Shown here piece after piece: positions 4,563 to 24,233 of a DNA stretch of 64,000 nucleotides. The number at the start of each line of letters is the position of its first letter. The first letter of the stretch is position 1. The position numbers and the translations under genes were made by a program. The notes beneath the pieces are model-generated. The model saw only the letters and a program-made list of their open reading frames with translations, was not told the DNA's origin and searched no databases. Source of the stretch: Desulfovibrio sp. (GTDB lineage Bacteria > Desulfobacterota > Desulfovibrionia > Desulfovibrionales > Desulfovibrionaceae); the NCBI RefSeq assembly GCF_034006445.1, contig NZ_JAVESS010000010.1, positions 28,933 to 92,932 on the forward strand, written 5' to 3'.

Positions 4563-6623
4563 ATGAAATGTAGGCGCGTGGTATCCCTGCTCGCTATTCT
4601 GCTGTTGCAGGCAAGTGGAGCATGGGCACAGGAGGAGGGGGCAACAGAGGTTTTGTTGACGCCACTTGAGATGACAGAGCCAAAAAACACCATTGACCAT
4701 ATCACCCAGACAGATATGGAAAGAAAGACGGCCACAAATCTGTGGGAAGCACTCAGGGGAGTGCAGGGCGTATATCTTCAGACAACAGGGGCCCGCAATG
4801 AGGGTACCATTGGTATACGTGGCTCAAACCGGTATCAGGTCGGCATGTATATTGACGATATTCCCATTGCCACTGCGTACCGCAATGAATGGGATTACAA
4901 TAATACCCTGACCTATGGCCTTGAGTCTGTAGACATCTCAAAAGGGTACAGTTCGCCCCTGCTTGCAAGCAACAACAACCTGGCTGGCGTGGTAAACCTG
5001 CGCACTGCAAAACCCAAAAAAGAATTTGAATTTTCAGCGAAATACATGAATTTTTTTGATCGCAGAATGCATGATCAGGGCCGCATGGCTGCCACCAGCA
5101 TAGGCACGCGGCAGGAGCTCTACTACCTGAAAGGCACCTTTGTGTATGACAACCAGGATTTTTTCACCCTGCCCGAAGGGTTTGACGCCGCACCCTACCA
5201 GGGCACGGGACGTCGCAAAAACTCCGACCACAGAAATCTGAGCGCCAACATCATTGGCGGCTGGACCCCCAGTGATGATGTGGACATCATGGTGGGCTAC
5301 ATGCGGCAAAGCTCCAGAAAAGGCCAACCCTTTGACGCAGCCGAGCTCCGTAAGGGGTCGGATCTTCCCTTTAAACGCTCGTGGTACTGGCCGGAATATG
5401 AAACCAGCCGTCTGTACACCAACGCCAATTTTAATCTGAGCAGGCAGGCCCACCTCAAGGCCGTGGTGTACTACGACTCGCATCAGGACAAGTCCGAAAG
5501 CTATACCGACATAGCCATGACCAAAAGGGACGGCGCTGATAAAAAGTATGATCAGTACACGCTCGGCGGGCAGTTGACTTTTGACTATGCCTTCAACGCG
5601 GCCAACAAGCTGGCGCTCTCTGCTGGCTACCGCATCCTTTCGCATAAAGAGTATAATGATTACGCTGTATTTGATGACACCGGACTGCCCGCCAAGCAAA
5701 AAAAGAAAAAGGCCGACGTCGGCGAGCAGCTGGATGAGCGCATTTCGGAAGGGTACTGGGATCTTGGCGCGGAATATACCCTCAAGCCCATTGAGCGCCT
5801 GACGCTTGTTTTTGGCACGAGCCTCAGCACCTTGACCCCCATGACGCTTGAAAGCCGTGACCATACTACAGATGCCATGAATTCTTATAAAAAAGGGCTG
5901 GACGATACCAAGACCCTGTTCAACTACCAGGTGGGCGCGTTCTACGACCTTACCGAAAAGCATGAAATTTTTGCCACCTTTGCCAAAAAATCCCGGTTCG
6001 CCACCATGCGCGAACGGTTCCTGAGAATTGGCGACGCTCCTGCCAATCCCGATTTGAACCCCGAACACGCTTATCATTACGAGCTTGGCTACAAGGGCCT
6101 TGTCAGCGACTGGCTCAAGCTCAACACCAGCGTGTACTACAGCGACGTCAGCGACATGATCACGTCCAAGGGGGTCAAGCCGAACATAACTTTTGAAAAC
6201 CTCGGCAGGGCCACATTCTATGGCTTTGAGGCAGGGGCTGAGGCTGTTGTCAATCAGTACTTCAGCGCGGGCGCTGTGTTCAACTACATGCGTTGGAATA
6301 ACTGCTCCAATGATGATAAGATTGCCCAATTGCCTGAAATAACAAGCACTCTTTATGGCGTGATCACTCCTCTGGAAGGGTTATCCATCATTCCCCAGCT
6401 CAACATCAGCAGCGGCTTTTACTGGAATACCTCCGCTGCTGACGTCCCGTACAGAAAGTCTCCCAACTTTGCCACTGCGGATATCAAAGCGGTGTATGAC
6501 ATCAACAAGAACTTCTCGGTGGAAGCTGGCGTGAAAAACCTGTTTGACCAGGAATATGCGTACAGCGCCTATTATCCGGAACCGGGCCGGAGCTATTTTG
6601 TGGGCGTGAGCGCCAATTTCTAG
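4563..6623 (+). CDS. TonB-dependent outer-membrane receptor 1
   Basis: Start moved to ATG 4563 (RBS GGAGGG, then signal peptide ending AWA-QE); plug motifs (IGIRG, VDISKG, GVVNL); C-terminal NLFD...YPEPGRSYFVGVSANF with terminal Phe. Confidence 0.9.
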   Translation: MKCRRVVSLLAILLLQASGAWAQEEGATEVLLTPLEMTEPKNTIDHITQTDMERKTATNLWEALRGVQGVYLQTTGARNEGTIGIRGSNRYQVGMYIDDIPIATAYRNEWDYNNTLTYGLESVDISKGYSSPLLASNNNLAGVVNLRTAKPKKEFEFSAKYMNFFDRRMHDQGRMAATSIGTRQELYYLKGTFVYDNQDFFTLPEGFDAAPYQGTGRRKNSDHRNLSANIIGGWTPSDDVDIMVGYMRQSSRKGQPFDAAELRKGSDLPFKRSWYWPEYETSRLYTNANFNLSRQAHLKAVVYYDSHQDKSESYTDIAMTKRDGADKKYDQYTLGGQLTFDYAFNAANKLALSAGYRILSHKEYNDYAVFDDTGLPAKQKKKKADVGEQLDERISEGYWDLGAEYTLKPIERLTLVFGTSLSTLTPMTLESRDHTTDAMNSYKKGLDDTKTLFNYQVGAFYDLTEKHEIFATFAKKSRFATMRERFLRIGDAPANPDLNPEHAYHYELGYKGLVSDWLKLNTSVYYSDVSDMITSKGVKPNITFENLGRATFYGFEAGAEAVVNQYFSAGAVFNYMRWNNCSNDDKIAQLPEITSTLYGVITPLEGLSIIPQLNISSGFYWNTSAADVPYRKSPNFATADIKAVYDINKNFSVEAGVKNLFDQEYAYSAYYPEPGRSYFVGVSANF

Positions 6624-6775
6624 GGAAACGCTGATTTATTCCATTTGGCGGACTTGCTTCACTTTTTTGAAACAATCGAGGACGGAAGAGTCCACTCCTG
6701 CTTCAAAAAAGATCGCGCCTTGCCAAAGGAAATACCAGCGCGTTTCCAGGAGGCTCTTTAATCAGTGCTCCCCTA
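6621..6775. mobile_element. MITE-like element, family A copy 2 (155 bp)
   Basis: TAGGGAAACGCTGATT...AATCAGTGCTCCCCTA; begins in the TAG stop codon of the receptor gene; last TA shared with the next element. Confidence 0.8.
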
Positions 6776-6901
6776 GAGCATTTAACACTTGAAATGCTCG
6801 CGTACGGCAGGCAAAAGCCCGCCTGCTCGCATTTCGTGGCAAGGATTTTTCAGAAAAATCCTTGCAGAGCATTTAACTCATTTCATTCGTAAACTGCTCT
6901 A
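6774..6901. mobile_element. MITE/ERIC-like element, family B copy 1 (128 bp)
   Basis: TAGAGCA...TGCTCTA termini; near-identical to 24388-24515 (inverted) and 32945-33071. Confidence 0.88.
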
Positions 6902-6941
6902 GCGCTGATTCAGATATGCTTGACGTACTGTGAACACTGCC

Positions 6942-6976
6942 GCTTCAGCCGTTGCCATGCGTGTAACGGCTGAAGC
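6942..6976 (+). other. Intergenic stem-loop between receptor and ABC genes
   Basis: GCTTCAGCCGTT-N11-AACGGCTGAAGC; shares the CTTCAGCCG stem with the hairpin at 4015. Confidence 0.5.
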
Positions 6977-7106
6977 GCATCCTGCGTTCATAGAGGTAGC
7001 CGTACCGTGAGCACAACGTCGACGTAACATCGGCGCAACGTAGGGCGCAAAGCGCCGGTCTGGCTCTCCCTTTGCCAGAAGACGGCCGGAGCGACATGCC
7101 GAAAGG

Positions 7107-8171
7107 ATGGTGACTGTGCAGATTCGATTACTTGCCTCAGGGCTGCTTGTGCTGTTTGTCATGCTTGCCATGCCTGTCATGCCGTGTCGCGCCGGAGCGG
7201 CGGCGAGTCCTGCTGCCGTGACTGAGAGTGGGCCAGAGGCAAAGGATGCGCGCAGCGTCTATTGCGCCACCCCGCCTTCCACATTCACGCTGTACGCCTT
7301 TGCGCCGGAACTGCTGGCTGGCTGGAATACGCCCCTCAGGGATTATGAAAAAAAATTCATTCCCGCCCGGTACCACAATCTGCCGGTGCTGGGCGGCTGG
7401 TACGGCCAGGGCTTCATACCCGACAGGGAAATGCTGCTGGCCAGCGGCATCAAAAAAGCCTTTTACCTGTCCATGGGCCCGCACGACCGCCTGCCCATTG
7501 AAAAGACCCTGACCAGCCTTGGCATGCAGGTAACCAGCGTGCCCGGCGCGAGCATGGCGGACATGGCCACCTGTTTTCTGGATATGGGCCGGGCCTTTGG
7601 CCGTGAGGAGCGTGGGGCGGCATTGGCCACCTATGCAGAGCAGACGCTTGAAAAAGTGTCCCACGCCATGCGGGATCTGCCCAGTGAAAAATGGACAAGG
7701 GTTTATGTGGCCCTTGAGGCTGACGGTCTGGCCTCCGTCTGCCGCAAGTCACAGCGAGCAGAGGTATTTGCCGCCGCCGGGGCCCTGAGCGTGCACGACT
7801 GTCCGCCCGGAACGGAAGAATCCTTTTTGCGCGTGACCTTTGAGCAACTGATGGCCTATGACCCTGAAGTCATACTGGTTTTCCATCCGGCGCTCATGCG
7901 CCGCATCCCCACAGACCCCAAATGGTCGTCCCTGCCCGCCGTGCGCCAGGGCAAGGTGTACTTTATCCCGCGCGGGCCGTTCAGCTGGCTGGAGCGTCCC
8001 GCCACCTACATGCGCCTGCTGGGCGTGCAGTGGCTGGCAAACAAACTGCACCCCGACCTCTACCCCGTGGACATCGCGGCGGAGAGCAGACATTTTATGA
8101 AACTTTTTTTCAACCTGGAGCTTGATGACGCCCAGGTGAACGATTTTTTTGATCCCTATGGCACATTCTAA
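7107..8171 (+). CDS. Periplasmic substrate-binding protein (Fe-siderophore/B12/metal class III)
   Basis: Signal peptide; LPVLGGW and C-terminal VYFIPRGPFSWLERP...LGVQWLANKLHPDLY pattern; precedes FecCD permease. Confidence 0.85.
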   Translation: MVTVQIRLLASGLLVLFVMLAMPVMPCRAGAAASPAAVTESGPEAKDARSVYCATPPSTFTLYAFAPELLAGWNTPLRDYEKKFIPARYHNLPVLGGWYGQGFIPDREMLLASGIKKAFYLSMGPHDRLPIEKTLTSLGMQVTSVPGASMADMATCFLDMGRAFGREERGAALATYAEQTLEKVSHAMRDLPSEKWTRVYVALEADGLASVCRKSQRAEVFAAAGALSVHDCPPGTEESFLRVTFEQLMAYDPEVILVFHPALMRRIPTDPKWSSLPAVRQGKVYFIPRGPFSWLERPATYMRLLGVQWLANKLHPDLYPVDIAAESRHFMKLFFNLELDDAQVNDFFDPYGTF

Positions 8172-9165
8172 AAAAACCCTGCTCATACTGAGCCTGCTTT
8201 TGCTGGCGGCCATCGTGTTTGCCCTGCCCATGGGCCGTTACCCGTTGGCCCTGGGCGATCTGTGCCGCAGCCTGCTGGACGCGTGGGCAGGGCGGCCCCT
8301 GAATGAAGAGCAGAGCCGCCAGCTTTTTTTGTTCTTTGACCTGCGGCTGCCGCGCATTGGCGCGGCCCTGGTGGTGGGAGCCTGTCTTTCCGCTTCGGGT
8401 ACGGTGTACCAGAACATGTTTCAAAATCCCCTCGTATCGCCGGGCATACTGGGCGTGCAGCACGGAGCCGCTTTTGGCGCGGCCATTGGTATAGTGTTTT
8501 TTTCTTCCTGGCCGCTCACGCAGGCTTTTTCCTTTACTGGCGGCGCGCTGGGCGTGGGGCTTTCGCTCTTTTTCGCCTGGCTTTATCCCAGAGCGCGCTT
8601 TCTGGCCCTTGTGGTGGGCGGCCTTGTGAGCAGTTCGTTTTTTGTGGCCCTGACGTCGCTTGTGCAGTATGTGGCCGACCCCAACCGCCAGCTGCCGGAA
8701 CTTGTGTACTGGCTTATGGGCACGCTGGCCCGCACGGAACCGCGCCAACTGGCCTGGAGCACCCCCCTCATGCTGGCCGGGCTGGCCTATATCTGCCTCA
8801 ATGGCAAGGCGGTGAACGCGCTTGCCATGGGGGATGACGAGGCCCGCGCCCTGGGCGTGCAGAGTATGGGCATGAAGCTGCGCCTTATCGGCGCGGCCAC
8901 CCTGATCTGTTCGCTTACCGTGGTGCTGGCCGGGGTCATCAACTGGGTGGGGCTGGTCATCCCGCATGTCATGCGTTTCATAATCGGGCCGGACAACAGG
9001 GTGGGCCTCACAGCGTCAGCCCTTGGCGGAGCGCTTTTTGTGCTGCTCACAGACACGCTCATACGTTCTGTCTGGACAGTGGAACTGCCGCTGGGCATTG
9101 CCACATCGCTCATCAGCATGCCGCTTTTTGCCTTCAGCCTGTGGTACGACTGGAAACGGCGATGA
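8158..9165 (+). CDS. FecCD/BtuC-family ABC permease
   Basis: LRLPRI, FQNPLVSPGILGV, G.INWVGLVIPH, ELPLG motifs; multiple TM helices. Confidence 0.92.
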   Translation: MAHSKKTLLILSLLLLAAIVFALPMGRYPLALGDLCRSLLDAWAGRPLNEEQSRQLFLFFDLRLPRIGAALVVGACLSASGTVYQNMFQNPLVSPGILGVQHGAAFGAAIGIVFFSSWPLTQAFSFTGGALGVGLSLFFAWLYPRARFLALVVGGLVSSSFFVALTSLVQYVADPNRQLPELVYWLMGTLARTEPRQLAWSTPLMLAGLAYICLNGKAVNALAMGDDEARALGVQSMGMKLRLIGAATLICSLTVVLAGVINWVGLVIPHVMRFIIGPDNRVGLTASALGGALFVLLTDTLIRSVWTVELPLGIATSLISMPLFAFSLWYDWKRR

Positions 9166-9920
9166 TAGAAATTCATAATCTTACCGTCAGCTATCACAGC
9201 GCCCCTCCGGTGCTGAAAAATATTTCCCTGCGCGTGGACAGGGGCGAGGTGGTCAATGTGCTTGGCCCCAACGGCTGCGGCAAAACGACGCTGCTCCGGG
9301 CGCTTCTTGGTCTTTTGCCCTCTCCGCCCGGCAGTATCTTGCTGGACGGCCGCCCTCTGGAAACAATCCCGCGGCGCAGTCTGGCCCGCAGCCTTGCCTA
9401 TGTGCCGCAACAGCATACCGGGGTTTTTGGCTTTCAGGTGCTGGATGTGGTGCTCATGGGCCGCACCGTGCGCAGTCCCTGGTTGCGTTTTTCCGCCGAG
9501 GATCGGCAACAGGCCATGGCCGCGCTGGAAAAAGTGCGCCTGACCCATCTGGCGCACAGGTCGTATCTGGAGCTTTCTGGCGGGCAACGCCAGATGGTGC
9601 TGATTGCGCGCGCCCTGGCTCAGGACTGCGGGGCACTTGTGATGGATGAACCTGTCACGGGACTGGATTATGGCAATCAGTTTCATCTGCTTGACCTTAT
9701 TGGCGAACTGGCCGCATCTGGGCCAGCCATCTTGCTCACCACGCACCATCCGGAGCAGGCCGTCTACCTTGGCGGGCGGGCCGTGCTGTTGAAAGACGGC
9801 ATCCTGGTGGCGGATGGCGCTGTGGCATCGACCATTACCGAAGATCAGGTGCGCAAGTTGTATGAACTGCCGCCCAGGGCTGAAGCGTGGATGCGCCTGA
9901 CCGGGACCAGTGCGCCATGA
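9162..9920 (+). CDS. ABC transporter ATP-binding protein (FepC/BtuD-like)
   Basis: Walker A GPNGCGKT, LSGGQRQ, Walker B LVMDEP; ATGA overlap with permease stop. Confidence 0.93.
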   Translation: MIEIHNLTVSYHSAPPVLKNISLRVDRGEVVNVLGPNGCGKTTLLRALLGLLPSPPGSILLDGRPLETIPRRSLARSLAYVPQQHTGVFGFQVLDVVLMGRTVRSPWLRFSAEDRQQAMAALEKVRLTHLAHRSYLELSGGQRQMVLIARALAQDCGALVMDEPVTGLDYGNQFHLLDLIGELAASGPAILLTTHHPEQAVYLGGRAVLLKDGILVADGAVASTITEDQVRKLYELPPRAEAWMRLTGTSAP

Positions 9921-10915
9921 GCCATACAGATGTTGCAGAAGCCGCCATTGGCATGCCCCAGGCTGCGCAGGAGCGCGGCAGGCCGGTAATTTTCGGCAAT
10001 GTGCTGGTCTTTCTGCTTTCTTTGACGCTCCATACGGCCGCGCTCGCCGCCTTGTGGTTTCTGGCTGTTCCCGCATCGGGCGCGGGACAGGGCGGGGGAA
10101 CGGACGGATATATCACGGTCAGCCTGCTGGGCGGGCTACCGGGCGATTCGGGCGGCGTTGGCTCCGGAGCCGTGCCGGCCAATGCCGCCGATGCCGCAGC
10201 CTCTTCCGCAAACGAATCAGAACCCTCAGATGCCAAGGCTCATGAGTCTCCTTCCGTCACGCCTGTTCAGGAGACTGTGCCTGCCGCTGATCACGTTACG
10301 CAGCATGCAGAGGCCGACCAGGCCAAGCCTTCTCTTCCAGTGACGGACGCGGCTATTCCTGTACGCACTGCAAAGCCCGTTCCCAAAGACAAGACCCCCA
10401 ACCCGCCCGCAAATCCCGCCGCCAACCCGCCCGCAAATTCCGCCGCCAAAAAATCCTCGCACGAGCAGGCGCGGCCAGCCAGCGCTGGCACGGCGCAGCA
10501 GGGTGAAAAGGCTTCAAGCCCCGGCCATGAAGGGGGCGGCATGGCAGCGGGCCGAGGCGGCCAAAGTAGCGGGCAGGCAGGACAAAAAGGCGGTGGAAGC
10601 GGCGGTGAAAACAGCGCTGCCGGACAGGGAGGTTCCGCCGGATATCTGAAAGGAAATTACGAGTACATCAAAAGACGTGTCAGGCAGTATCTGGTCTACA
10701 GTCCGCAGGCCAAGCGTATGGGAATTCAGGGTATGGTGACCGTGTCGTTTACCATCCAACAGGACGGCAGGGTCAGGGATGTTGCGGTCAGTAAAAGCAG
10801 CGGTTACCCTTTGCTGGACGAATCCGCCCTTGAAGCGGTGCGTAGTGCAGCCCCCTTCGCAGCGCCGCCGGAGTCGGCGCGCGTGATCATGCCCGTGCAG
10901 TTCAGCCTGAGGTAG
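9917..10915 (+). CDS. tonB: TonB energy transducer 1
   Basis: N-terminal TM with SLTLH, Pro/Ala/Gly-rich linker, C-terminal YSPQAKRMGIQGMVTVSFTI...SSGYPLLDESAL. Confidence 0.88.
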   Translation: MSHTDVAEAAIGMPQAAQERGRPVIFGNVLVFLLSLTLHTAALAALWFLAVPASGAGQGGGTDGYITVSLLGGLPGDSGGVGSGAVPANAADAAASSANESEPSDAKAHESPSVTPVQETVPAADHVTQHAEADQAKPSLPVTDAAIPVRTAKPVPKDKTPNPPANPAANPPANSAAKKSSHEQARPASAGTAQQGEKASSPGHEGGGMAAGRGGQSSGQAGQKGGGSGGENSAAGQGGSAGYLKGNYEYIKRRVRQYLVYSPQAKRMGIQGMVTVSFTIQQDGRVRDVAVSKSSGYPLLDESALEAVRSAAPFAAPPESARVIMPVQFSLR

Positions 10916-10925
10916 CGAGGTAGCT

Positions 10926-12512
10926 ATGGTTATTGCAAGAATTCTGCTTTCTCTTTTTCTGCTGGTTTGCTCCGCCGTTCCCGTTCTGGCGGATGTAAAA
11001 ATATTTGTTACCAATGATGTTCATGGCTACGTGGCCGACAATCCAGAAAAAAAGAACATCGGCTATGCCCGGCTCAAGGCCGTGGCCGATGGCGCGCGGG
11101 CCGAGGGCCATACGGTGTTTGTTCTGGATGCGGGTGACGCCTTCAGCGGCAGCGCCTTTGCGCAGATCGACCAGGGCCGCAGCGTGGCAAAGCTTATGGG
11201 ACAGGTGGGCTACCGCGTGCTCACGCCGGGCAACCACGCCTTTGATTACACCCTGTCTGAAGGCCCATTGTACTACGGCAATGAGTTGCTGCGCCTGGTG
11301 CGTGAAAACAGCCCCGGCAAGGTTGACGCCGTGGCCGAAAACCTCACGTACAAGGGGGCCGATCCTCCCGGCATGGTCACAAAGCCTGTGGTCATTTATG
11401 ATGAAACAGCGAAAAATCCACAGGGCATGCGCGTCATTGTCACTGGCGTTATTACGCCATATTCCGTGAAACCCAGCTTGCGTCAGGCGCTGGCGGACTA
11501 CGACTTCGACTTGAAGCCAACCCCCGAGGCCACCAAAAAAACCATTCTTGACCGGCTGACGCAGTCTCTTGCACCGTATGACAGGCCTCAGGATGTGGTC
11601 ATCGTGCTGAGCCACCTTGGCTATGCCGGGCCCAAAGGCGACAAGGACGGGCGTATCACCGGGCCTGATGTGGCCGCCGTGCCCAATGTGGATTTTGTGG
11701 CGGACGGGCACAGCCACAAGGCTGTGACCCCGAACCGTGACTACGGGGCAATGTACGCCAACGGCGGACGCTATCTTGAGCATTTCATGGTGATCACCCT
11801 TGATGGCAAAAAGGGCGACATGGCCCTTAAATCATACGCTGACGTGGCGGAAGTCGTGCCGGACAAGGCCATGACGGACAGCATCCGACAGCTTGATGCC
11901 GCACAGGGTCTTGAGGAAGTTATCTTCACCTCCCCTGACGACAGTGTTTTCAAGGACGGGCATTTACGCAAGGACAGCACGCCCCTGGGGCGCCTTATTT
12001 GCGAGAGCATGGCAAAGGCTGCCGGAGCCGCCATTGCCCTGCACACTCCCGGCGGCATACGCGCGGGGCTGCCCGGCGGGCCCGTGCACCGGCGTGACCT
12101 GCTTGATGTTTTGCCCTTTGACGACCGACTTGTTGCCGTAGACATGACAGGCAAGGAGATTGCCGGTGTGTTCACGCGCGGCATGGGGCACGGCGGGCGT
12201 GGCTTGCCGCAGTTTTTCGGGCTTGATGTATGGGCCTGGCGGGATGAAGACGACAGCCTGCACGTGGCCGGGTTGCGCCTCACGAACGGGGATTCGCTCC
12301 AGCCGGACAAACAGTACCGGGTGGCCCTGAACGGATTTATGGCCAGAAATATGAATCTGCCCACAAAGAAAGATCGTGGAAACCTCGTGGATGCTTTGGA
12401 AAAACAGTTGAAACAGGGTGTTGATGTGGAGGCCCTGCGGGCAGGCAGGAATTTGTTTGTTTTTGCGGACAAGGCAGCGGCGGAGGCGGCCTGGAAGGCC
12501 GGGAACCGTTAG
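10926..12512 (+). CDS. Periplasmic 5'-nucleotidase / calcineurin-like metallophosphoesterase
   Basis: Signal peptide; TNDVHG, DAGD, GNHAFD, LSHLG, GHSH motifs; C-terminal GGIRA domain. Confidence 0.88.
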   Translation: MVIARILLSLFLLVCSAVPVLADVKIFVTNDVHGYVADNPEKKNIGYARLKAVADGARAEGHTVFVLDAGDAFSGSAFAQIDQGRSVAKLMGQVGYRVLTPGNHAFDYTLSEGPLYYGNELLRLVRENSPGKVDAVAENLTYKGADPPGMVTKPVVIYDETAKNPQGMRVIVTGVITPYSVKPSLRQALADYDFDLKPTPEATKKTILDRLTQSLAPYDRPQDVVIVLSHLGYAGPKGDKDGRITGPDVAAVPNVDFVADGHSHKAVTPNRDYGAMYANGGRYLEHFMVITLDGKKGDMALKSYADVAEVVPDKAMTDSIRQLDAAQGLEEVIFTSPDDSVFKDGHLRKDSTPLGRLICESMAKAAGAAIALHTPGGIRAGLPGGPVHRRDLLDVLPFDDRLVAVDMTGKEIAGVFTRGMGHGGRGLPQFFGLDVWAWRDEDDSLHVAGLRLTNGDSLQPDKQYRVALNGFMARNMNLPTKKDRGNLVDALEKQLKQGVDVEALRAGRNLFVFADKAAAEAAWKAGNR

Positions 12513-16461: not shown

Positions 16462-17349
16462 TTACCGCAAACTGAAGATGAAGGGCAGTTCCACCAGGGT
16501 ATTCACTGGCTGACCCTTGAGTTTGCCGGGGACAAAACGCATGTTTTTTGCCGCCTTGAGCGCCGCTTCCTCGAAATACCCGTCCGGCGTCGCGTTGACA
16601 ACTTCACAGTTGCGGGGCTGGCCGGAGGCGTCCACCACAAGGCGCACCTTGACGGAACCCTGAATGTTCATGCGTTGGGCCCTGGCGGGGTATTCCGGTT
16701 CAACGCGCCGGGTAATGCTGGGGCGTTGATCCAGTACATCGCAGGCGTAGGCGTCAATCCCGCCCACGGTGCGCGGCTGCGGCCCTGCTGGTGCGGTTGC
16801 CCCTGCCTGAAGTGCCGGGCCAGCCGTGGTGCCTGTGGCGGCCGAGGCAACCGTAGTGGTCGGGACGGCAGGAGAAGGCTGTGCTGCCGGAAGGGAAGGC
16901 TGCTCAGGCGTGGCTGCTTCCTTGGGTATGGCTGTTTCGCTCTTTTTGGGGCTGATCTTTTTTGCTTCCGGCTTCGGTGGTACAGGTTTGGCGGGGCGGG
17001 CATCCGGCTTTGGCTGCGCCAGTTCCGGCGGAGGCGGCGGAGACGGCGCGGGCTTTTCCGCCACAGCGGGCGCGGCAAGCAAGGTGGGATCTGCAGACAC
17101 GGCAGGCGGCGATCCAGCGGCCGGAGCAAACTCGGCAAGCGTCACACGGTAGACCCTTACCGCTGTGGGTGGCGCTTCCCTGCCCAGCAGCAGCAAACCG
17201 CCCAGCAGCAGCGCGTGCATACCCAGGGAAAGGGCCAGGGCCACGCCACGTATGCCAGACAGTGTCGTCATGGGCGTCTTTCCTGGTATTTCTGCGTTGA
17301 ACTTCGTCCTGTATTCCGGACGAGTGCCATCAGAGTACACTCCCTGCAT
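16462..17349 (-). CDS. tonB: TonB energy transducer 2 (start uncertain: 17349 or 17271)
   Basis: TM SLGMHALL, Pro-rich linker, YPARAQRMNIQGSVKVRLVVDASG...FEEAALKAA. Confidence 0.87.
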   Translation of the reverse strand: MQGVYSDGTRPEYRTKFNAEIPGKTPMTTLSGIRGVALALSLGMHALLLGGLLLLGREAPPTAVRVYRVTLAEFAPAAGSPPAVSADPTLLAAPAVAEKPAPSPPPPPELAQPKPDARPAKPVPPKPEAKKISPKKSETAIPKEAATPEQPSLPAAQPSPAVPTTTVASAATGTTAGPALQAGATAPAGPQPRTVGGIDAYACDVLDQRPSITRRVEPEYPARAQRMNIQGSVKVRLVVDASGQPRNCEVVNATPDGYFEEAALKAAKNMRFVPGKLKGQPVNTLVELPFIFSLR

Positions 17350-17365
17350 AAAAAGCTCGTTTTCC

Positions 17366-18115
17366 TTAAAAAAGCACATGGGGCTGGCCGTCAATGGTCT
17401 GCAAACGGACTGCCATGCCGTATGCGCGGCCAAGGTCATGCTCGCTCAGTCCCGATGTCGGCCCCTGATATGCCGGGCGTCCCTGGTGCAGAAGCATGGC
17501 GTGCTGCGTGTAGCGCAGCGCATAGCTCAGGTGGTGCAGCACGATGCACACACAAATGCGGCGAGTTGTACTGATATCTGTAATTGTTTCAAGCAGTTCA
17601 ACCTGATTGCGTATGTCCAGGTGGTTGACGGGCTCATCCAGCAGAAGGACGGGAGCTTCCTGCGCAAGAGCGCGGGCTATAAGCACTTTTTGCAGCTCGC
17701 CGCCGCTGAGGCTGGTGACGCACTGTTTTTCCAGATGGGTGAGATGCAGTTCTTCAAGGGCGGCCTGTGTTTTCAGGCGATCTTCCTTGCCGGGCAGCCA
17801 GCCCATGTGCGCTCTGCGCCCCAAAAGCACGGCATCAAAAACGCTGCTCGGCACGGGCTGGGCAGTCTGCGACAGGTAGGCCACGGCTTGCGCGCGCTGG
17901 CGGCGGTTCAGGCCGAAAAGGCCGCTTCCTCCGTACAGCACGCGCCCGGATGTGGGGCGTTCAAGCCCGGCCACAATTCTGGCAAGGGTGCTTTTGCCCG
18001 CGCCGTTGGGGCCGATGAGGGCCATGCAGCGTCCCGGTTCAAGGCAAAAGGATATGCCCTCAAGGATGGTTTTGCCGGAGCGTGCCACAAGAGAGATGTT
18101 TTCGGCCTCAAGCAT
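17366..18115 (-). CDS. ABC transporter ATP-binding protein
   Basis: GPNGAGKS, LSGGELQ, LLLDEP; start overlaps permease stop. Confidence 0.92.
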   Translation of the reverse strand: MLEAENISLVARSGKTILEGISFCLEPGRCMALIGPNGAGKSTLARIVAGLERPTSGRVLYGGSGLFGLNRRQRAQAVAYLSQTAQPVPSSVFDAVLLGRRAHMGWLPGKEDRLKTQAALEELHLTHLEKQCVTSLSGGELQKVLIARALAQEAPVLLLDEPVNHLDIRNQVELLETITDISTTRRICVCIVLHHLSYALRYTQHAMLLHQGRPAYQGPTSGLSEHDLGRAYGMAVRLQTIDGQPHVLF

Positions 18116-19340
18116 GCGCCCTGGCCCCCCTGAAAAGAATGTACAGAAAAACCGGAACCCCGGTGAAGGCGCAGACAATGCCTACAGGCAACAGGGCGGG
18201 GTAGATGATGGACTGGGCCACGAGGTCGGCTGCCAGCAAAAAACACGCGCCAAACAGGGCGGAACCGCCTAGCAGAAAAAAATGTCCGGCGTGGGGAAAG
18301 ATGAGCCGCACCATGTGGGGCGCCACCAGGCCCACAAAGCCGATGACCCCGTAAAAGGCGGTGGCAAAGGCCGCCATAAGCGAGGCCATGAGCAGGGTAG
18401 TGCAGCGCAGCCGCAGCACTGACACGCCCAGAGCCGCCGCCTGGGCGTCGCCCCAGCGCAGGGTGTCATAGTCCAGGTTGCGGCGCAGGGAAAAGACGAG
18501 GCCCGTCAGCAGCACGAGGCCCACCAGCGCGACCTCGCGCCAGCTTCCCCTGCCCAGATCGCCGAAGCTCCAGAAAACGGTGGCGGCCACCTGGCTGTCA
18601 GAGGCGAAAAACTGCAAGGACATGGTGGCGGCCCCAAAGAGGGTGGACAGGGCCACCCCTGCGAGAATAAGCCCCTGCGGCCCCATGCCCCGCACCATGC
18701 TGAAGGCCAGTATGATCAGGGCCGCGCTGAGCGAACCGGCCAGCGCGCCCATGGCCACGGTGCTCAATCCCGCCAGTCCGCCAGCCATGGGCAGAATAAC
18801 CATGGAAAAGCTGGCTCCAAAGGCGGCCCCCTGTGAAAGCCCCAGGGTAAAGGACGAGGCCAGCGGGTTGTTGAGCACATTTTGCAGCATGGTTCCGGTG
18901 AGAGCCAGGGACGCGCCGACAGCCAGGGCGGCGCAGACCTTGGGCAAGCGCAGATGGAGGACAAAATAACGTAAGGATTCGTCGCCGGAAGCGCTGAACA
19001 GGGCGGCCCAGATGTCGGACCACGAGCGTGAAAGCGCACCCATCTTTAGGCCCGCCAGCCCCAGCAGCACGGTCACAACCAGCAGTGCCGCCATTGAGAA
19101 GACGCGCGCGCGGGGGCCATCCCACGGTTGGGAGCAGCAGTCCCCTTTTGGGGCCACAAAAAGCGGGGAGTGCTGGCTGCCGCAATAAGCCTGGCTGCCG
19201 CAGTGGGCGTGCGGGCTGTCGCAGTGGGCCTGGCTGCCGCAGTGGGCATGCGGGCTGTCGCAGTGGGCCTGGCTGCCGCAGTGGGCTTGGGGGTGCTGGG
19301 CCGTGTCACTCTGGCCGCCAGTGGGCACCTTACCGGGCAT
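18108..19340 (-). CDS. FecCD-family ABC permease with His/Cys-repeat N-terminal extension
   Basis: LRLPKV, NNPLAS, GVIGFVGLVAPH, LPVG; N-terminus HCGSQAHCDSPHA repeats; ATG overlaps the upstream stop (ATGCCCGGTAA). Confidence 0.9.
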   Translation of the reverse strand: MPGKVPTGGQSDTAQHPQAHCGSQAHCDSPHAHCGSQAHCDSPHAHCGSQAYCGSQHSPLFVAPKGDCCSQPWDGPRARVFSMAALLVVTVLLGLAGLKMGALSRSWSDIWAALFSASGDESLRYFVLHLRLPKVCAALAVGASLALTGTMLQNVLNNPLASSFTLGLSQGAAFGASFSMVILPMAGGLAGLSTVAMGALAGSLSAALIILAFSMVRGMGPQGLILAGVALSTLFGAATMSLQFFASDSQVAATVFWSFGDLGRGSWREVALVGLVLLTGLVFSLRRNLDYDTLRWGDAQAAALGVSVLRLRCTTLLMASLMAAFATAFYGVIGFVGLVAPHMVRLIFPHAGHFFLLGGSALFGACFLLAADLVAQSIIYPALLPVGIVCAFTGVPVFLYILFRGARAHA

Positions 19341-20409
19341 AGTCCAGCCCCTGTGCGGTCAGTTGCAGTCTGCCCGGCCTGCCGGTGACGCGCACCATGT
19401 CTTCATACAGGGGGAAGCCGTTGAAAAGAATGAATATTTCATCGGCCAGCGCCTCGGGATCAAGGCTGGAATATCTTTGGGGGTAGGCTGCCTTGGCCAT
19501 GAAAAAGGCATTGATATACAGCACTTCAGGATTGTTGAAATAGGCCGTGTGGGGCAGCAGCAGCCAGGTGTTGCCGCTTGTGAGGGCTGTGAGGCGTTCA
19601 TAATACCGCCGTTCGCTGTCCAGCGCCTGGCGTATGAGCGGCAGCCCGTTGCCGTCTATGAAGATCAGGGGCGGGTCGGCCGCCAGCAGAAATTCCCTGT
19701 TGATGAAAAAATGTCCTGATTGGCCCATACCATCGACCATGTTTTTTACGCCCGAAAGCGTGAAGGGCAGAAAGTCGGCGGCCGTGCTTTTGATGTCCTG
19801 GTTGCCCTTGTAGGAAAGCCCGCCCATGTAGGCCTGCACCATCGCTTGTTCAGCCGGGGCGGGCAGGCGTTTGGCCAGATCGCCAATGCCCGTGACCAGT
19901 TCCTGAGCGCGTTCTTCCCTGCCCAGAATGTTTCCGGCAAGGAGGATGGACTCAAAAAAAATCTCGCTGTCAAAGGCGGGCAGCCCCTGACTCAGGGCAA
20001 TGACCGGCACGCGCAGCTTGCGCTGGATCTGGTCAGGTTCTGACGGATCAGTGGAGATGATAAAGACCACATCCGGGTTGAGGGCCACAATACGTTCATA
20101 GTTGGGCACGCGCACGGCCCCGGCCTTGCCGACCACGGGCAGGTCTTTGAAGCGCTCGCGGTTGCAGAGCACATAGGGCTTGGCAATGACGGCCTTGTCG
20201 ATGTCCTCCACGCCCACGATCCTGTCCTGCGCGCCAAGGTAGGTCACAAAGGCCATGCTGCTGCCAAGGGCGATAACGCGCCGCACGTTTTGCGGCTCCG
20301 GCACTTCCACAAGGCGGCCCATGGCGTCGGTGACGGGGCGCGCCCCGGCAGGAGCCGCGCCCGACAGCAGCGCCAGAGCCAGCAGGAGCAGACTCAGCGC
20401 TTTTGCCAT
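19330..20409 (-). CDS. Periplasmic substrate-binding protein (class III)
   Basis: Signal peptide (APAGA-RP), VTDAMGRLVEVP, PNYERIVALNPDVVF, KAAYPQRY. Confidence 0.88.
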   Translation of the reverse strand: MAKALSLLLLALALLSGAAPAGARPVTDAMGRLVEVPEPQNVRRVIALGSSMAFVTYLGAQDRIVGVEDIDKAVIAKPYVLCNRERFKDLPVVGKAGAVRVPNYERIVALNPDVVFIISTDPSEPDQIQRKLRVPVIALSQGLPAFDSEIFFESILLAGNILGREERAQELVTGIGDLAKRLPAPAEQAMVQAYMGGLSYKGNQDIKSTAADFLPFTLSGVKNMVDGMGQSGHFFINREFLLAADPPLIFIDGNGLPLIRQALDSERRYYERLTALTSGNTWLLLPHTAYFNNPEVLYINAFFMAKAAYPQRYSSLDPEALADEIFILFNGFPLYEDMVRVTGRPGRLQLTAQGLDYAR

Positions 20410-21161
20410 ATGATCATCTCGATGACATAGTCCGTGCGTTCCACATACTGGCCTTGTTCATCCTTGAATGTCTCCACGTGCGCTTCCACAAAGCGCGGGT
20501 CGGGTTCCGCGCCGTATTCACGCAGGGTGGTGAGGCAGACGTCCACAAGATCCTCACGGCTTTTTGCCACCACCCACTGGCCCGTGACCGGGATGGCTGT
20601 GTAGGGCACGCCATTGCGGTCAAGCCAGGATCGCATATCCTGGGCATTGTTGAAAATTTTTGGGGCAATGCCGTAGTGCTCGTGCAGGCCCTGCATGACG
20701 TTGGAGAGCATGCGGTCTGAAAAGCCCATAAAAACCACCTTGTCGGCGGCATACTGCATGAGCTTTTCTCTACTTGCGTCGCTTTCAATGGCTGGCGTCA
20801 TTGAGGCAAAAACAACGTCAAAGCGTTCATGGGCAGAAAAGTCATCCCAGCCGGAGCATACGGTGGTAATGTTGGTGATGTGCATGGCCGCGGCGTCTTC
20901 GCGCAGCAGGCGCAGCATCTCGTCGGACACGTCCACCGCCGTGACGTGCTCGCCCATGCGCGCCAGACGCAGGGTGTACATGCCGCTGCCACAGCCCACA
21001 TCCAGAATGCGTTTATTGGTGAAATCCACTCCGTTTTCCATGGCGTGACGAAGCATCTTGGCCTCGTAGGTATGATCGCCTTCCTCAAAGCGCGGGAAGG
21101 TGCGCGAGCGGGCATTCCAGAATTCACGCTGCTTTTGCTGTTTTTCGTCTACAGTTCCCAT
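20394..21161 (-). CDS. Class I SAM-dependent methyltransferase 2
   Basis: ILDVGCGSG, AVDVSDEML; N-terminal FWNARSRTF; overlaps both neighbours. Confidence 0.88.
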   Translation of the reverse strand: MGTVDEKQQKQREFWNARSRTFPRFEEGDHTYEAKMLRHAMENGVDFTNKRILDVGCGSGMYTLRLARMGEHVTAVDVSDEMLRLLREDAAAMHITNITTVCSGWDDFSAHERFDVVFASMTPAIESDASREKLMQYAADKVVFMGFSDRMLSNVMQGLHEHYGIAPKIFNNAQDMRSWLDRNGVPYTAIPVTGQWVVAKSREDLVDVCLTTLREYGAEPDPRFVEAHVETFKDEQGQYVERTDYVIEMIIWQKR

Positions 21162-23359
21162 TTGATGCTGACCCCCGCGTTGATTCCCAGTGCCGGGTAT
21201 CCCCAGGCTTCTTCATACTGGGTGTTGGTTATGTTGTCCGCATAGGCTTCAAGAGTAAGGTGTTCGTCAACCCTGTAGCTGAGGCTTGCGCCAAGGGTGG
21301 CGTAGTCGTGCAGCGTGCCCTTACGCAACTGGGCCGTATTGACGTAGTAGTTGCGTTGCCCCACATAGGTCAGCACGGCGTCAAGGGTGAACTGTTCGTT
21401 GATTTTCCAGGTGGTTCCAAGGGTTCCCTTCCAGTCGGGGATGTATTCCAGCCTGTCCAGCACGCCGTTGGGGTCGGCAGGGTCATTGGTTTTTTTGCTG
21501 TCCTGCCTGGTGATGGCGGCGTTGACCGTCACAGTGTCCAGCAAATCATAGCTGCCGCTCAGGGTGGCCCCGTATATTTCGGCGTCGATATTGTAGGCGG
21601 CCCAGGCCTGGTAGCTCGGCGACCGGTTAACGTAGACAGGTTTGTGAACGATGTAGTCCTGAACGGTGTAGTAAAAGCCGGAAAGCTTGAGAAAACCCTT
21701 GCCCCCGAAGCTGTATTTATAGGCAGCGTCAATGCCGCGCGCGGTTTCGGGCTTTATGTCCTTGCCCACCAGATAGGGCACGTTGACCGTGGCGTCCCGC
21801 GATGATGCCTGCGAGTTCCAGTACAGTTCCGGGATGGTGGGGGTTCTGTAATTCTGGTACAGCGCAAGGGAGGCGGACTGGTGTTCGGTAAAGTCATACG
21901 TGAGCATGATCTTTGGGGAAAGCTGCGAGTTTAAAAGATGTTTGTCCTGACCTTCAGGGCTGTAGCTGAAACTGTCGTAGCGCAGGCCCATATCAAGACG
22001 CAGGCTGTCGGTGATGGAGAACTTGTCGGCCAGAAAGGCACCCGTGACCGTGGCGGGCCTGCCTGCTTCTGCGGAGTCCATCTTGCCCGTCCACTTGTTG
22101 GCCCCGGCCTTGTTGTAGTTTTCGTCCACATATTCAACGGTGATGGGGCCGGGGGTCAGCCTTTTGTATTCAACACCCGTCATGAGCTCGTGGCCATGAA
22201 CGGTGACGCCCGTTTTGAACTTGAAGCCGTAGGTATTGTCCACAATGACGTTACGGTCCAGTACGAGGTCGCCGTTTCTTGTTTGGGAGGGATTAAAGTC
22301 TCTGGGATTCGTTGTTTTTAACTGCATGCGGGCGTCAACGTCCGCATAGTTTTTTTCACGGCGGCTTTCGCTGTTCTTGAAACCGGAGACTTCAAAGTAG
22401 GCGGTTTCAAGAAACTCCTGCCGATAGGTGAAATCCATAAGGTGGCGGTACTTGGTCCAGTGCGCGCCGTCGCCGATAACCGTCATGGAAGGCGTGGGCG
22501 AACCACCGGCAAAGCTTTCGCCGCTGGCTGTTGGGTAGTTGGAGTCAATGGCGGAACTGAAGCCGGGCACATCCGGATTGGCGTCGCTGGCGGGGTTGCC
22601 GTCGTTTCTGTTGCTGCGGATAAGCCCGCGCCGGGTCTGGCTGTAGTTGTACCCCAGGGTGAGTTCTGCCCGCCAGGGCAGGTCGATGTAGAGCTTGGGG
22701 TTGAAGTGGAAGGAGTCGTAGTCGTTGTTGCGCAAAAAGGGGTCGGCGTGCTGATGGCTCAGGCCCACGCTGAGGCCGATGGCGTTGAACTTCTGGGCAT
22801 AGCTGCCGCGCACGTTGTGAAAATCGTAAAAGTCCTTCCAGCCGCCCATGGTGGCGTAAGCGCTGAAATGGGGCTGCTCCGTGGGCCGACGGGTATAGGC
22901 GTTGATGACCCCGCCAAGGGCGCTGTTGCCGTATTCAACCGAACTGCCGCCCTTGATGACCTCAATCTTCTCGATATTGTCCAGCGGGATGGTGCCAAAG
23001 TCGATATAGTTGCCGCCGGACATGCCCGTGGAACTGATATCACGCCCATCAAGGTTGAGCATGATTCTTTTGGATTCCATGCCCCGTATGGAAATGATGT
23101 CGCTGCTGTCTCCCATGGCGGCCTTGCGCTTGAAGGATATTTCAGGGTCGCGCACCAGGTAGTCGGCCACGTTGTTGCTGCGGTTTTTTTCCACAACAAT
23201 GGCGGTTGTTCTGTCCAGATTGTCTTCTTCCATACGTCCGGTAACCTTTATGGGATCCAGAACAAAGACATCCTGCATGAGGTTGTCGGAACCGGCCGCG
23301 ATCCCCGCTCGGGGAAAGGCCATAACTGCCAGCAAGCACAGACTGAGAACAAGTTTCAT
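21149..23359 (-). CDS. TonB-dependent outer-membrane receptor 2
   Basis: Start moved to MKLVLSL (GGAG 7 nt upstream); plug ISIRG, IEKIEVIKGGSSVEYGNSALGGVIN; C-terminal DNITN...GVSIKWEL. Confidence 0.9.
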   Translation of the reverse strand: MKLVLSLCLLAVMAFPRAGIAAGSDNLMQDVFVLDPIKVTGRMEEDNLDRTTAIVVEKNRSNNVADYLVRDPEISFKRKAAMGDSSDIISIRGMESKRIMLNLDGRDISSTGMSGGNYIDFGTIPLDNIEKIEVIKGGSSVEYGNSALGGVINAYTRRPTEQPHFSAYATMGGWKDFYDFHNVRGSYAQKFNAIGLSVGLSHQHADPFLRNNDYDSFHFNPKLYIDLPWRAELTLGYNYSQTRRGLIRSNRNDGNPASDANPDVPGFSSAIDSNYPTASGESFAGGSPTPSMTVIGDGAHWTKYRHLMDFTYRQEFLETAYFEVSGFKNSESRREKNYADVDARMQLKTTNPRDFNPSQTRNGDLVLDRNVIVDNTYGFKFKTGVTVHGHELMTGVEYKRLTPGPITVEYVDENYNKAGANKWTGKMDSAEAGRPATVTGAFLADKFSITDSLRLDMGLRYDSFSYSPEGQDKHLLNSQLSPKIMLTYDFTEHQSASLALYQNYRTPTIPELYWNSQASSRDATVNVPYLVGKDIKPETARGIDAAYKYSFGGKGFLKLSGFYYTVQDYIVHKPVYVNRSPSYQAWAAYNIDAEIYGATLSGSYDLLDTVTVNAAITRQDSKKTNDPADPNGVLDRLEYIPDWKGTLGTTWKINEQFTLDAVLTYVGQRNYYVNTAQLRKGTLHDYATLGASLSYRVDEHLTLEAYADNITNTQYEEAWGYPALGINAGVSIKWEL

Positions 23360-23483
23360 GCGTACTCCGGAGCGGCGCCTGTGCTGAAGGTTGGTGTCAG
23401 TCCTGCGCATGTGATGTTTTTTAAAAAAGTGCTACTGTCTGATGGAAAAAAGGCTGCTCGCGGCAGCCTTTTGCCTTTTTTTG

Positions 23484-24020
23484 TTACCAGCGCCGGTGGT
23501 ATGTATGCTGGCAGTCCAGGCAGACCTTTTTGCCGTCCTCAAGGCGCAGCATGGGTTCCGCCACGCCCTCGCCGCAGACTTCGCAGGCTATGGTGGAAAA
23601 AATGCGGGGAGCTTCAGGGATTGCATAGTCCGGGGCCGCCGCGCTGAATAGTTTTTCAAGCGGCATGTCCATAAGGGTTTGCTGCCATTCATCCCTGCTG
23701 GCCTGTTCGCTTTTATTGACCTGCAGGCACAGGCGCAAGGACGCGCCGCTTTCGCGGTCAAAAAAGGAATAGGCGTGTTTGCCGCGCGGGCGCGCCACAA
23801 GATTGCCCTTGCCAGCCGAACAGCCGAGCAGGCTTTGAATGGCGTCCACACCGCAGGCGTCGTTTTCTGTAACGCAAACAAGCTTGCCGTAGGCGGCCTG
23901 CCCAAGCACGGGGTGGGCCATCACAGCCTCCACGGCGCGCAAACCGATGACAAGGCCGGGGCAAAGATGCCCGTGAAAGGTTACGGCCCTGTTGAGCCTG
24001 TCCGAAGCTGATTGGTCCAT
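23484..24020 (-). CDS. FmdE-family protein 2 with C-terminal C4 zinc finger
   Basis: FHGHLCPGLVIG, ENDACGVDA, CSAGKGNL, CEVCGE...VCLDC; start moved to MDQSA. Confidence 0.88.
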   Translation of the reverse strand: MDQSASDRLNRAVTFHGHLCPGLVIGLRAVEAVMAHPVLGQAAYGKLVCVTENDACGVDAIQSLLGCSAGKGNLVARPRGKHAYSFFDRESGASLRLCLQVNKSEQASRDEWQQTLMDMPLEKLFSAAAPDYAIPEAPRIFSTIACEVCGEGVAEPMLRLEDGKKVCLDCQHTYHRRW

Positions 24021-24187
24021 GATGCCCCCCTGCATGCAGCCTGACTCTGCATGCCAGTTTCCGCATAGCTGTTTGCTTTTGCATGGCAGTTTGGCCACGC
24101 CTTCCCGTGCGCGGCCTACCCCGGTCATCCCTGCCCAGCGGCATTGTCGCCGTGTGGATACGACGGTACGGCTTTGGGCAATTCATA

Positions 24188-24214
24188 GTAACACAATTTG
24201 AATTATCGTAACAC
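24188..24214 (-). promoter_or_regulatory. NikR-type operator GTGTTAC-N13-GTGTTAC
   Basis: Minus strand gtgttacgataattcaaattgtgttac; half-site and spacing match the deltaproteobacterial NikR site as I recall it; overlaps the -10 box. Confidence 0.65.
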
Positions 24215-24233
24215 GTAAGGCTAAGCTTGGCAA
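24205..24233 (-). promoter_or_regulatory. Sigma70 promoter of the fmdE2-receptor 2 operon
   Basis: TTGCCA-N17-TACGAT on the minus strand. Confidence 0.7.

Follow-up and report, generated by a model that had tools for sequence, protein, structure and literature searches.

The DNA stretch analysed here, referred to as the window, comprises 64,000 nucleotides (contig C27:28933-92932) of the essentially complete 3.5-Mb genome of a gut-type Desulfovibrio. The proteins that it encodes are closest to those of Desulfovibrio, and its DUF364 protein is 92% identical to that of Desulfovibrio sp. MES5 and about 80% identical to that of D. falkowii. Gene identities were assigned through Pfam scans of the window proteins (Table 1). 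A type II (FecCD/BtuCD-class) ATP-binding cassette (ABC) importer set of permease, ATPase and cluster A substrate-binding protein (SBP) is encoded twice in the window, each time in the company of a TonB-dependent receptor, a TonB protein, an FmdE protein and a class I methyltransferase (MT) dependent on S-adenosylmethionine (SAM). System A consists of receptor 1, SBP1, FecCD permease 1, ATPase 1, TonB 1 and a periplasmic phosphoesterase, along with the fmdE1-DUF364-MT1 operon. System B is a single operon with the gene order fmdE2-receptor 2-MT2-SBP2-FecCD2-ATPase2-TonB2. We propose that these are two independent TonB-dependent metal importers, system A for molybdenum or tungsten (Mo/W) and system B for nickel, each equipped with its own FmdE protein and SAM-dependent methyltransferase; taken as a whole, the chances that this proposal is correct are in our judgment about even.

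Gene content, gene order and strands had been described in an earlier, sequence-only reading of this DNA, and the Pfam assignments confirm every part of that description. Its remark on overlapping stop and start codons holds as well, since most adjacent genes overlap by 4-16 nt according to the translations and the table of open reading frames (ORFs). According to the same translations, both receptors, both SBPs and the phosphoesterase have signal peptides and the methyltransferases lack them. The start codon of the receptor 1 gene is preceded at a distance of 4 nt by GGAGG, and the protein itself reaches the cut-off of no NCBIfam receptor subfamily. The two FmdE proteins match PF02663 with 94 and 103 bits. 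That the transcription units reuse the same kinds of parts is correct insofar as the paired parts are present, but judged by their identities of 23-36% these are old paralogs and not recent copies. The receptors share 23% of their residues, the SBPs 25%, the permeases 32%, the ATPases 36% and the FmdE proteins 30%; MT1 and MT2 are 29% identical over the 145 amino acids of the SAM-binding half. The complete three-unit arrangement is also present in Desulfovibrio sp. MES5 (L009).

Table 1. Genes, promoter elements and repeats of systems A and B, with their positions in the window
Feature	Position	Strand	Match or remark
Operator-like site, receptor-1 promoter: TTCACG-N13-CGATAC (reverse complement GTATCG-N13-CGTGAA)	4396..4420		35-bp conserved block
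TonB-dependent receptor 1, 686 aa, signal peptide	4563..6623	+	Plug and beta-barrel domains
MITE-like repeats across the receptor 1-SBP1 gap (484 bp)	6624..7106		217 blastn matches genome-wide
SBP1, periplasmic binding protein, cluster A	7107..8171	+	Peripla_BP_2
FecCD permease 1	8149..9165	+	PF01032, E 8e-72
ABC ATPase 1	9141..9920	+	PF00005
TonB 1	9887..10915	+	TonB_C
Exported UshA-like phosphoesterase/5'-nucleotidase	10926..12512	+	Metallophos and 5_nucleotid_C; N-terminal signal sequence
MT1, class I SAM methyltransferase	13749..14576	-	Pfam methyltransferase domains
DUF4213/DUF364 protein	14567..15340	-	PF04016 with PF13938 (129 and 65.5 bits)
FmdE1, C-terminal zinc ribbon	15333..15908	-	PF02663 and zf-dskA_traR
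Operator-like site upstream of fmdE1: AGTCTCG-N13-CGTGACT (gene strand)	16050..16074		Conserved half-sites
TonB 2	16462..17439	-	TonB_C
ABC ATPase 2	17366..18115	-	PF00005
FecCD permease 2, N-terminal His/Cys-rich tandem repeat (about 19169-19295)	18108..19340	-	PF01032
SBP2, periplasmic binding protein	19330..20409	-	Peripla_BP_2
MT2, class I SAM methyltransferase, between receptor and SBP genes	20394..21161	-	Pfam
TonB-dependent receptor 2	21149..23359	-	Plug and barrel domains
FmdE2, zinc ribbon	23484..24020	-	PF02663 and zf-dskA_traR
Promoter TTGCCA-N17-TACGAT and NikR-type operator GTGTTAC-N13-GTGTTAC (24188-24214)	24188..24233	-	-10 box overlapped by operator

The module to which system A belongs is conserved far beyond this genome. 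A DUF364 profile search of contigs from one genome per species yielded 504 stretches encoding the family, and the best 80 loci were analysed. A FecCD permease is encoded within 10 kb of DUF364 in 48 of these 80 loci; when only the 43 loci with 5 kb or more of sequence to either side are counted, 36 have one. FmdE directly adjoins DUF364 in 30 of the 80 loci and is then always FmdE1-like, while the SBP accompanying DUF364 is SBP1-like in 46 of 48 cases. The core is found in Desulfovibrionaceae, Adiutrix, termite-gut Deltaproteobacteria, Moorella, Syntrophomonas, Pelotomaculum, Desulfotruncus, Clostridium ragsdalei, Acidobacteriota and Spirochaetes; Bacillota are represented too. In most genomes the unit comprises only FmdE-DUF364 and the importer. 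The fuller form, in which a fmdE1-DUF364-MT1 unit faces a nucleotidase-TonB-ABC-SBP-receptor unit, is shared by D. falkowii and other Desulfovibrio; the position of the phosphoesterase gene is identical in seven Desulfovibrionaceae loci, and orthologs of MT1 follow DUF364 in 9-10 loci from Desulfovibrionaceae, Adiutrix and termite-gut Deltaproteobacteria. At the end of one receptor-SBP-FecCD-ATPase-ExbBD-TonB operon, FmdE and DUF364 are fused into a single protein. Among 151 sampled Desulfovibrionaceae genomes, 49 encode DUF364, which is present in a single copy in the genome studied here. The co-occurrence of these families in other genomes, on which the sequence-only reading depended, is thus borne out: since FmdE, DUF364 and FecCD co-occur widely, a lack of co-occurrence cannot be held against it. 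The association of FmdE, DUF364 and methyltransferases that it had proposed is likewise supported, by the existence of FmdE-DUF364 fusion proteins and by the repeated, non-orthologous recruitment of class I methyltransferases described below.

The gene context of DUF364 and the promoters of system A point toward Mo/W. Neighbouring genes of the 80 loci were clustered, representatives were scanned, and families present in at least three loci were counted; a second SBP, a Desulfovibrio-only SDF transporter and unannotated or spurious ORFs were set aside. The recurrent families are XdhC (12 loci), a TrmO_N protein (10), another class I methyltransferase (9), a class V, cysteine-desulfurase-like aminotransferase (Aminotran_5; 7), MoeA (6), HTH_17-PBP_like regulators (5), ModA (3) and ModB (3). 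Nickel, cobalt, iron, haem and corrin genes are absent from the neighbour families found in three or more of the 80 loci. A DUF364 gene of Methanococcus maripaludis resides in a modABC operon, an operon cofit with nif (bioRxiv 2024.03.05.583561). The site in the receptor-1 promoter is part of a 35-bp block conserved in six Desulfovibrio loci, and the one upstream of fmdE1 has constant half-sites and a variable spacer in six other Desulfovibrio loci. Read in the same direction, the receptor-1 site is GTATCG-GTATTTTTAAAAA-CGTGAA and the fmdE1 site GTCTCG-GTTACTAAAAAAG-CGTGAC; by this comparison, the two promoters have one 25-bp operator in common. The Desulfovibrio ModE-type consensus is CGGTCACG-N14-CGTGACCG (PMC545781), and between the integrase-TOBE gene and modABC of this genome we found a box of the form ATCACG-N14-CGTGAT (ATCACG-GTTTTTGCAAAAAA-CGTGAT), with which two further sites in the genome have TCACGGTTTTT...CGTGA in common. 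The sites of system A and the modA box are alike in their right half, CGTGA(C/A), and in an A/T-rich spacer. An exact canonical GTCACG-N14-CGTGAC site does not occur in the genome and one-mismatch sites are numerous in GC-rich coding DNA, so that the canonical scan was informative only once modA had been located. Of the contexts examined at C24:8524 and C17:6392, the ModE-type site at C17:6392 is adjoined by a TOBE protein. Among solved structures, the best relative of SBP1 is 4PAG (E 2.3e-51), and the third is MolA/HI_1472 (3.3e-8), the binding protein of MolBC-A, a type II importer for molybdate and tungstate (PMC4031551).

The promoter of system B points to nickel. The operator upstream of fmdE2 reads GTGTTAC-GATAATTCAAATT-GTGTTAC and is the sole site without mismatch in the 3.5-Mb genome when all four orientations are considered, at an expectation of about 0.1 exact sites by chance (a back-of-envelope estimate). 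The delta-proteobacterial NikR consensus is GTGTTAC-N13/14-GTAACAC, of which everted variants are known (PMC545781). The genome has a nikR gene (NikR_C match of 116 bits, contig C26), and the promoter of a DUF4198 (nikK-type) gene (contig C8:233890-233970; L006 3985-4070) carries two weaker, tandem NikR-like sites, the everted GTAACAC-N13-GTGTTTT and the direct-type GTAGCAT-N13-GTAACAC. The operator is conserved in Desulfovibrio sp. MES5, and the operon FmdE-receptor-MT-SBP-FecCD-ATPase-(ExbBD)-TonB recurs in two more divergent contigs. In L123, whose FmdE is 80% identical, the site is GTGTTAC-TTTATTAAAATAA-GTGTTAC, identical to that of the window in half-sites, orientation and spacing, though the sequence of the spacer is unrelated; in L122 (FmdE 64% identical), it is a canonical inverted tgGTTAC-N13-GTAACAC. 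We regard this recurrence as the decisive point in the case for nickel control; on balance it favours membership of system B in the NikR regulon, and the operators make control of the operon by nickel very probable. Permease 2 has an N-terminal His/Cys-rich repeat, AHCGSQAHCDSPH..., of about four units, of which Desulfovibrio sp. MES5 has a single unit and L123 a short His-containing stretch, while the permeases of L122 and of a Fur-boxed paralog elsewhere in the genome are devoid of it; it appears to be a recent tandem expansion. We place this tail in the cytoplasm on the assumption of a BtuC-type topology. The best solved relative of SBP2 is 2ETV (TM0189; E 3.5e-66), followed by MolA (9.4e-12). 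Receptor 2 is matched best by the NCBIfam models of the PUIUD, CU, PCPU and FCYXU types, all far under their cut-offs; U in these motif names we take to denote selenocysteine, and receptor 2 without its signal peptide is free of Cys.

The idea of one dedicated pathway, as put forward in the sequence-only reading, does not hold. The promoters define two systems instead, one with ModE-like and the other with NikR-type operators, and there is a third copy elsewhere in the genome, a receptor-MT2-like-SBP2-like-FecCD-ATPase operon on contig C25 (about 41300-47150; locus L111 6751-12549). Several Fur-like boxes precede this operon, the best with 2 mismatches and as good as the boxes of feoAB. With feoAB and the C25 operon serving as positive controls, no Fur-like box with up to 4 mismatches was found in any of the four upstream regions of the window; the boxes of the C25 copy suggest that it is iron-regulated. 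Relatives of MT2 occur only in Desulfovibrionales (85 clusters, all annotated merely as class I methyltransferases), where a five-gene unit receptor-MT-SBP-FecCD-ATPase holds them in several genomes. The last gene of FmdE-DUF364-FecCD-ATPase-SBP operons in Bacillota encodes an unrelated methyltransferase of class I, and a Romboutsia operon starts with MT-FmdE-SBP-FecCD-ATPase. As a methyltransferase has been recruited repeatedly whatever the metal regulator, its role would fit an action on the chemistry of the carrier or cargo and not on one particular metal. The AlphaFold model of MT2 (predicted local distance difference test score of 92) aligns with template modelling scores of 0.62-0.68 to 3CCF, TmtA/GtmA and OxaG. 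Its best full-length fold matches include the thiol S-methyltransferases TmtA/GtmA, and trans-aconitate and malonyl-ACP carboxyl methyltransferases rank lower. At the level of the fold, MT2 thus resembles class I small-molecule SAM methyltransferases; as to the substrate, sequence and fold searches returned only generic small-molecule methyltransferases.

Knowledge of FmdE goes back to the description of the molybdenum formylmethanofuran dehydrogenase operons. Compared with solved structures, both FmdE copies of the window keep the HxHxC...C metal site, in the form of YHGHIC...DRC and FHGHLC...DAC, and FmdE2 matches 3D00 with an E-value of 5.7e-9. FmdE is present in 124 of the 151 sampled Desulfovibrionaceae genomes; among the matches listed, frames of about 550-600 amino acids, the size of a fusion protein, predominate by a reading of the table, uncounted. 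One such fusion is the third FmdE of this genome, a protein of 564 amino acids (C19:3199-4893, L007) that joins FmdE, a treble-clef zinc ribbon and a molybdopterin-binding MoCF_biosynth domain, and whose gene lies 0.5 kb downstream of a MobA-like gene; this fusion adds to the evidence that links system A with Mo/W. The DUF364 protein of system A matches 3L5O with an E-value of 6.8e-47. The DUF364 fold resembles that of CbiT and has a pocket of the type that binds SAM or S-adenosylhomocysteine (SAH) (PMC2954201), and the first enzyme of the family to be characterised, in 2026, is a cyclase of a SAM derivative and not a chelatase (PMC12930334). This sole characterised member forms an azetidine amino acid from a SAM derivative; by analogy, DUF364 is probably a SAM-utilising enzyme.

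The TrmO_N proteins among the recurrent neighbours of DUF364 deserve a separate description. In ten loci (L035, L050, L052, L059, L064, L067, L073, L074, L076 and L079) from Acidobacteriota, Spirochaetes and others, a TrmO_N protein of about 280 amino acids lies beside the DUF364/ABC module, often together with a class V aminotransferase. Its C-terminal half is without a Pfam match and resembles the FmdE core by eye; TrmO_N is a listed fusion partner of the FmdE core in the FmdE paper of 2010.

Several observations weigh against the assignment of metals made here. The left half of the system A operator is GT(C/A)TCG and not (G/A)TCACG, and its spacing is N13 instead of N14. A ModE-like operator was not found upstream of the distant orthologs L015, L016, L018, L022 and L024, which include Adiutrix and termite-gut metagenome-assembled genomes, and the regulatory argument for Mo/W therefore extends to the Desulfovibrio clade only. 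A MolA-type oxyanion site in SBP1 had to be rejected, as K221 of MolA aligns to Ser and R264 to a gap, with the match to MolA covering one lobe only. The crystallographic site of FmdE is a tetrahedral His2Cys2 site with bound Zn or Ni (PMC2954224), a geometry that suits Zn, Ni or Co better than Mo/W oxyanions. Moreover, an FmdE-FecCD ABC pair is found near a cbiZ fragment in Dehalococcoides, and another together with an ArsR-type regulator, feoAB and ZIP in one Bacillota genome; FmdE itself is therefore not metal-specific. With respect to system B, the NikR site of the window is a direct repeat whereas the published consensus is an inverted one, even though half-sites and N13 spacing are perfect. 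Weighing context and operators against these points, we consider the odds that system A supplies Mo/W to be nearly balanced.

Our observations concern gene content, paralogy, the conservation of modules, operators and their conservation, and domain fusions; from there we infer the metals, the form of the cargo (chelate or free ion) and every chemical step that follows import. In the mechanism that we propose, a receptor energised by the TonB protein of its own operon would move a scarce metal species across the outer membrane, the cluster A SBP would pass this species to the FecCD/ATPase importer, and cytoplasmic FmdE would accept the metal at its His2Cys2 site. SAM enzymes, namely the methyltransferase and, in system A, DUF364 too, would then modify the carrier ligand or the cargo, freeing the metal for onward transfer; that the cargo is methylated or unloaded, as the sequence-only reading had already suggested, is purely conjectural. 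In system A, the metal would be handed toward the synthesis of the molybdopterin cofactor, under the control of a ModE/TunR-type regulator (TunR being a tungstate-responsive regulator) that would act via the operator common to both promoters. System B would represent a nickel-uptake operon repressed by NikR. A more specific version, which we hold to be unlikely, is that system A carries out TonB-dependent uptake of Mo/W in a form other than the free oxyanion, followed by SAM-dependent release, and it would then be the first such route. The imported form could in that case be, for example, a metal-organic complex, a thiometalate or a pterin-type fragment of a cofactor that the exported phosphoesterase has trimmed. 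DUF364 would serve as SAM lyase or alkyl transferase, donor atoms on the carrier would be capped by the methyltransferase, and FmdE would deliver the metal to molybdopterin. Nickel in system B and iron in the C25 copy would be freed by this methylate-to-release logic as well.

Other explanations of the same gene set have to be considered. Import of plain ions or oxyanions, with receptors that merely raise the affinity at the outer membrane and with FmdE, DUF364 and methyltransferases serving cofactor maturation or intracellular metal trafficking, has a precedent in MolBC-A, a type II importer with a small substrate. XdhC, MoeA and the cysteine-desulfurase-like protein as neighbours would agree with it, and the His/Cys tail of permease 2 fits a release of free Ni at the inner face. 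Yet, the binding residues of MolA are not kept in SBP1, and the same unit with its methyltransferase is apparently under nickel control in one copy and under iron control in another, which fits an enzyme acting on a shared type of ligand better than a cofactor-specific step; we grant this explanation a minor share of the probability only. We judge it improbable that fmdE1-DUF364-MT1 produces a small, SAM-derived metallophore, in which case DUF364 would cleave SAM in the manner of Orf5, MT1 would methylate the product, and both receptor/ABC systems would re-import the loaded chelator. SAM-using partners do recur, in the form of class I methyltransferases and TrmO_N-FmdE fusions, and nicotianamine-type metallophores are built from the same SAM moiety. 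The SAM/SAH-like pocket of the DUF364 fold (PMC2954201) and the formation of methyl-azetidine carboxylate from a SAM derivative by the sole characterised DUF364 enzyme (PMC12930334) are in line with such a biosynthesis. However, exporter, nicotianamine-synthase and opine-dehydrogenase domains are missing from the scanned genes of the window, and the corresponding genes from the neighbour families present in at least three of the 80 loci. Furthermore, most genomes possess only FmdE-DUF364 and an importer, and system B as well as the Fur-boxed copy have a methyltransferase without DUF364.

Uptake of a tetrapyrrole (a corrinoid, haem or an F430-like compound) that is remodelled by the methyltransferases and DUF364 would draw on the presence of BtuFCD and haem importers among FecCD systems, the likeness of DUF364 to the CbiT fold, weak matches of the methyltransferases to CpaM and CbiT models, and the cbiZ fragment next to the Dehalococcoides FmdE-ABC operon. 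It is made highly improbable by the absence of a cobalamin or any other riboswitch, as scans of the window at the gathering score and of positions 3500-26000 at E-values up to 5 gave only a tRNA and chance-level matches. The receptors, too, fall far under the BtuB and haem cut-offs (85 and 97 bits for TIGR01779, which demands 599.7), the best solved relatives of the SBPs are neither BtuF nor haem binders, and no family of corrin or haem biosynthesis recurs in at least three of the 80 loci. Scarcely any credence can be given to the view that both systems are ordinary ferric-siderophore importers. The part list of receptor, Peripla_BP_2, FecCD, ATPase and TonB is generic enough to allow it, and public records name relatives iron(III) ABC transporter proteins, but the four upstream regions of the window lack any Fur-like box with up to 4 mismatches, of which feoAB and the C25 operon have several, and the operators present instead are of the NikR type and ModE-like.

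Some further features of the region surround these genes. The leader of receptor 1 (4441-4566) is kept in six Desulfovibrio loci; a block within it, CCATCTGTACTC (4441-4452), is complementary to the ribosome-binding site and start codon (4555-4566), and a hairpin at 4502-4526 shows one compensatory change. The leader has no match in Rfam. Such an arrangement could be a translational control element, with the reservation that covariation of the long pairing cannot be judged because both of its sides are almost invariant. The gap between the nucleotidase and MT1 genes (12513-13748) contains internal repeats about 145 bp apart together with copies that are present on contig C40, and part of the gap upstream of fmdE2 (24388-24518) holds repeats resembling miniature inverted-repeat transposable elements (MITEs) that are abundant in the genome. 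One MITE-like unit of 130 bp is present at near identity in many contigs. A tRNA-Arg (ACG) gene on the minus strand (50258-50334) is the sole Rfam or ARAGORN match in the window.

Collectively, the arrangement described here is genuine, is conserved and lends itself well to experiments; as the sequence-only reading had supposed, no biochemical description of it was found in the literature searched. FmdE and DUF364 are widespread and without an assigned role, even though a DUF364 structure has been solved since 2010. Because one architecture appears to be wired to three metal regulators in a single genome, the locus offers a compact and genetically tractable setting in which such a role could be assigned. 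If our proposal is true, sulfate reducers in habitats that, like the gut, are sulfidic and poor in metals would obtain Mo/W and Ni, which their formate dehydrogenases and hydrogenases contain, by energised uptake across the outer membrane, and a SAM-dependent step would be part of metal import, something without a described precedent. The occurrence of FmdE and DUF364 genes beside metal or ABC transporters is already known and was noted, in general terms, in 2010 (PMC2954201, PMC2954224). What is new is that the importers are coupled to TonB, that methyltransferases are embedded among their genes and that the wiring is specific to particular metals; no paper joining FmdE and TonB was found in the literature searched.

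The locus can be compared with several known systems. The families are the same as those of Dhaf4260 (PDB 3L5O) and of the JCSG FmdE structures 2GLZ, 2GVI and 3D00, but the papers on these proteins describe neither a function nor a regulator, TonB coupling or methyltransferase partner. Orf5 from the bonnevillamide cluster, likened here by description, belongs to the DUF364 family and acts on a SAM-derived substrate (4''-methyl-SAM, converted to methyl-azetidine carboxylate); in contrast to system A, it resides among secondary-metabolite genes, partnered by a radical SAM protein and without a transporter or FmdE. The described system closest to system A is MolBC-A from Haemophilus influenzae (HI1470/HI1471/HI1472). 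It likewise combines a permease of the FecCD class with an ABC ATPase and a cluster A SBP, and its MolA ranks within the first three solved structures related to SBP1 and to SBP2, with a match to one lobe only. It transports Mo/W, to which system A is linked by gene context, but it operates without a TonB-dependent receptor, a dedicated TonB, FmdE, DUF364 and a methyltransferase. Closest to system B is the NikR-controlled, TonB-dependent nickel uptake of Helicobacter, which is not known to involve FmdE, DUF364 or an embedded methyltransferase. H. pylori uses FrpB4 with ExbBD-TonB, and H. mustelae NikH with CeuE/FecDE. Alike are an outer-membrane receptor and TonB that serve nickel under NikR and a FecCD-class ABC importer whose cluster A SBP binds a nickel complex; the CeuE structures 4INO and 4LS3 are weak matches in the structure comparison of SBP1. 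Unlike its Helicobacter counterparts, system B has all of its parts in one operon, together with an embedded methyltransferase, FmdE, a His/Cys-tailed permease and an operator that in this clade is a direct repeat.

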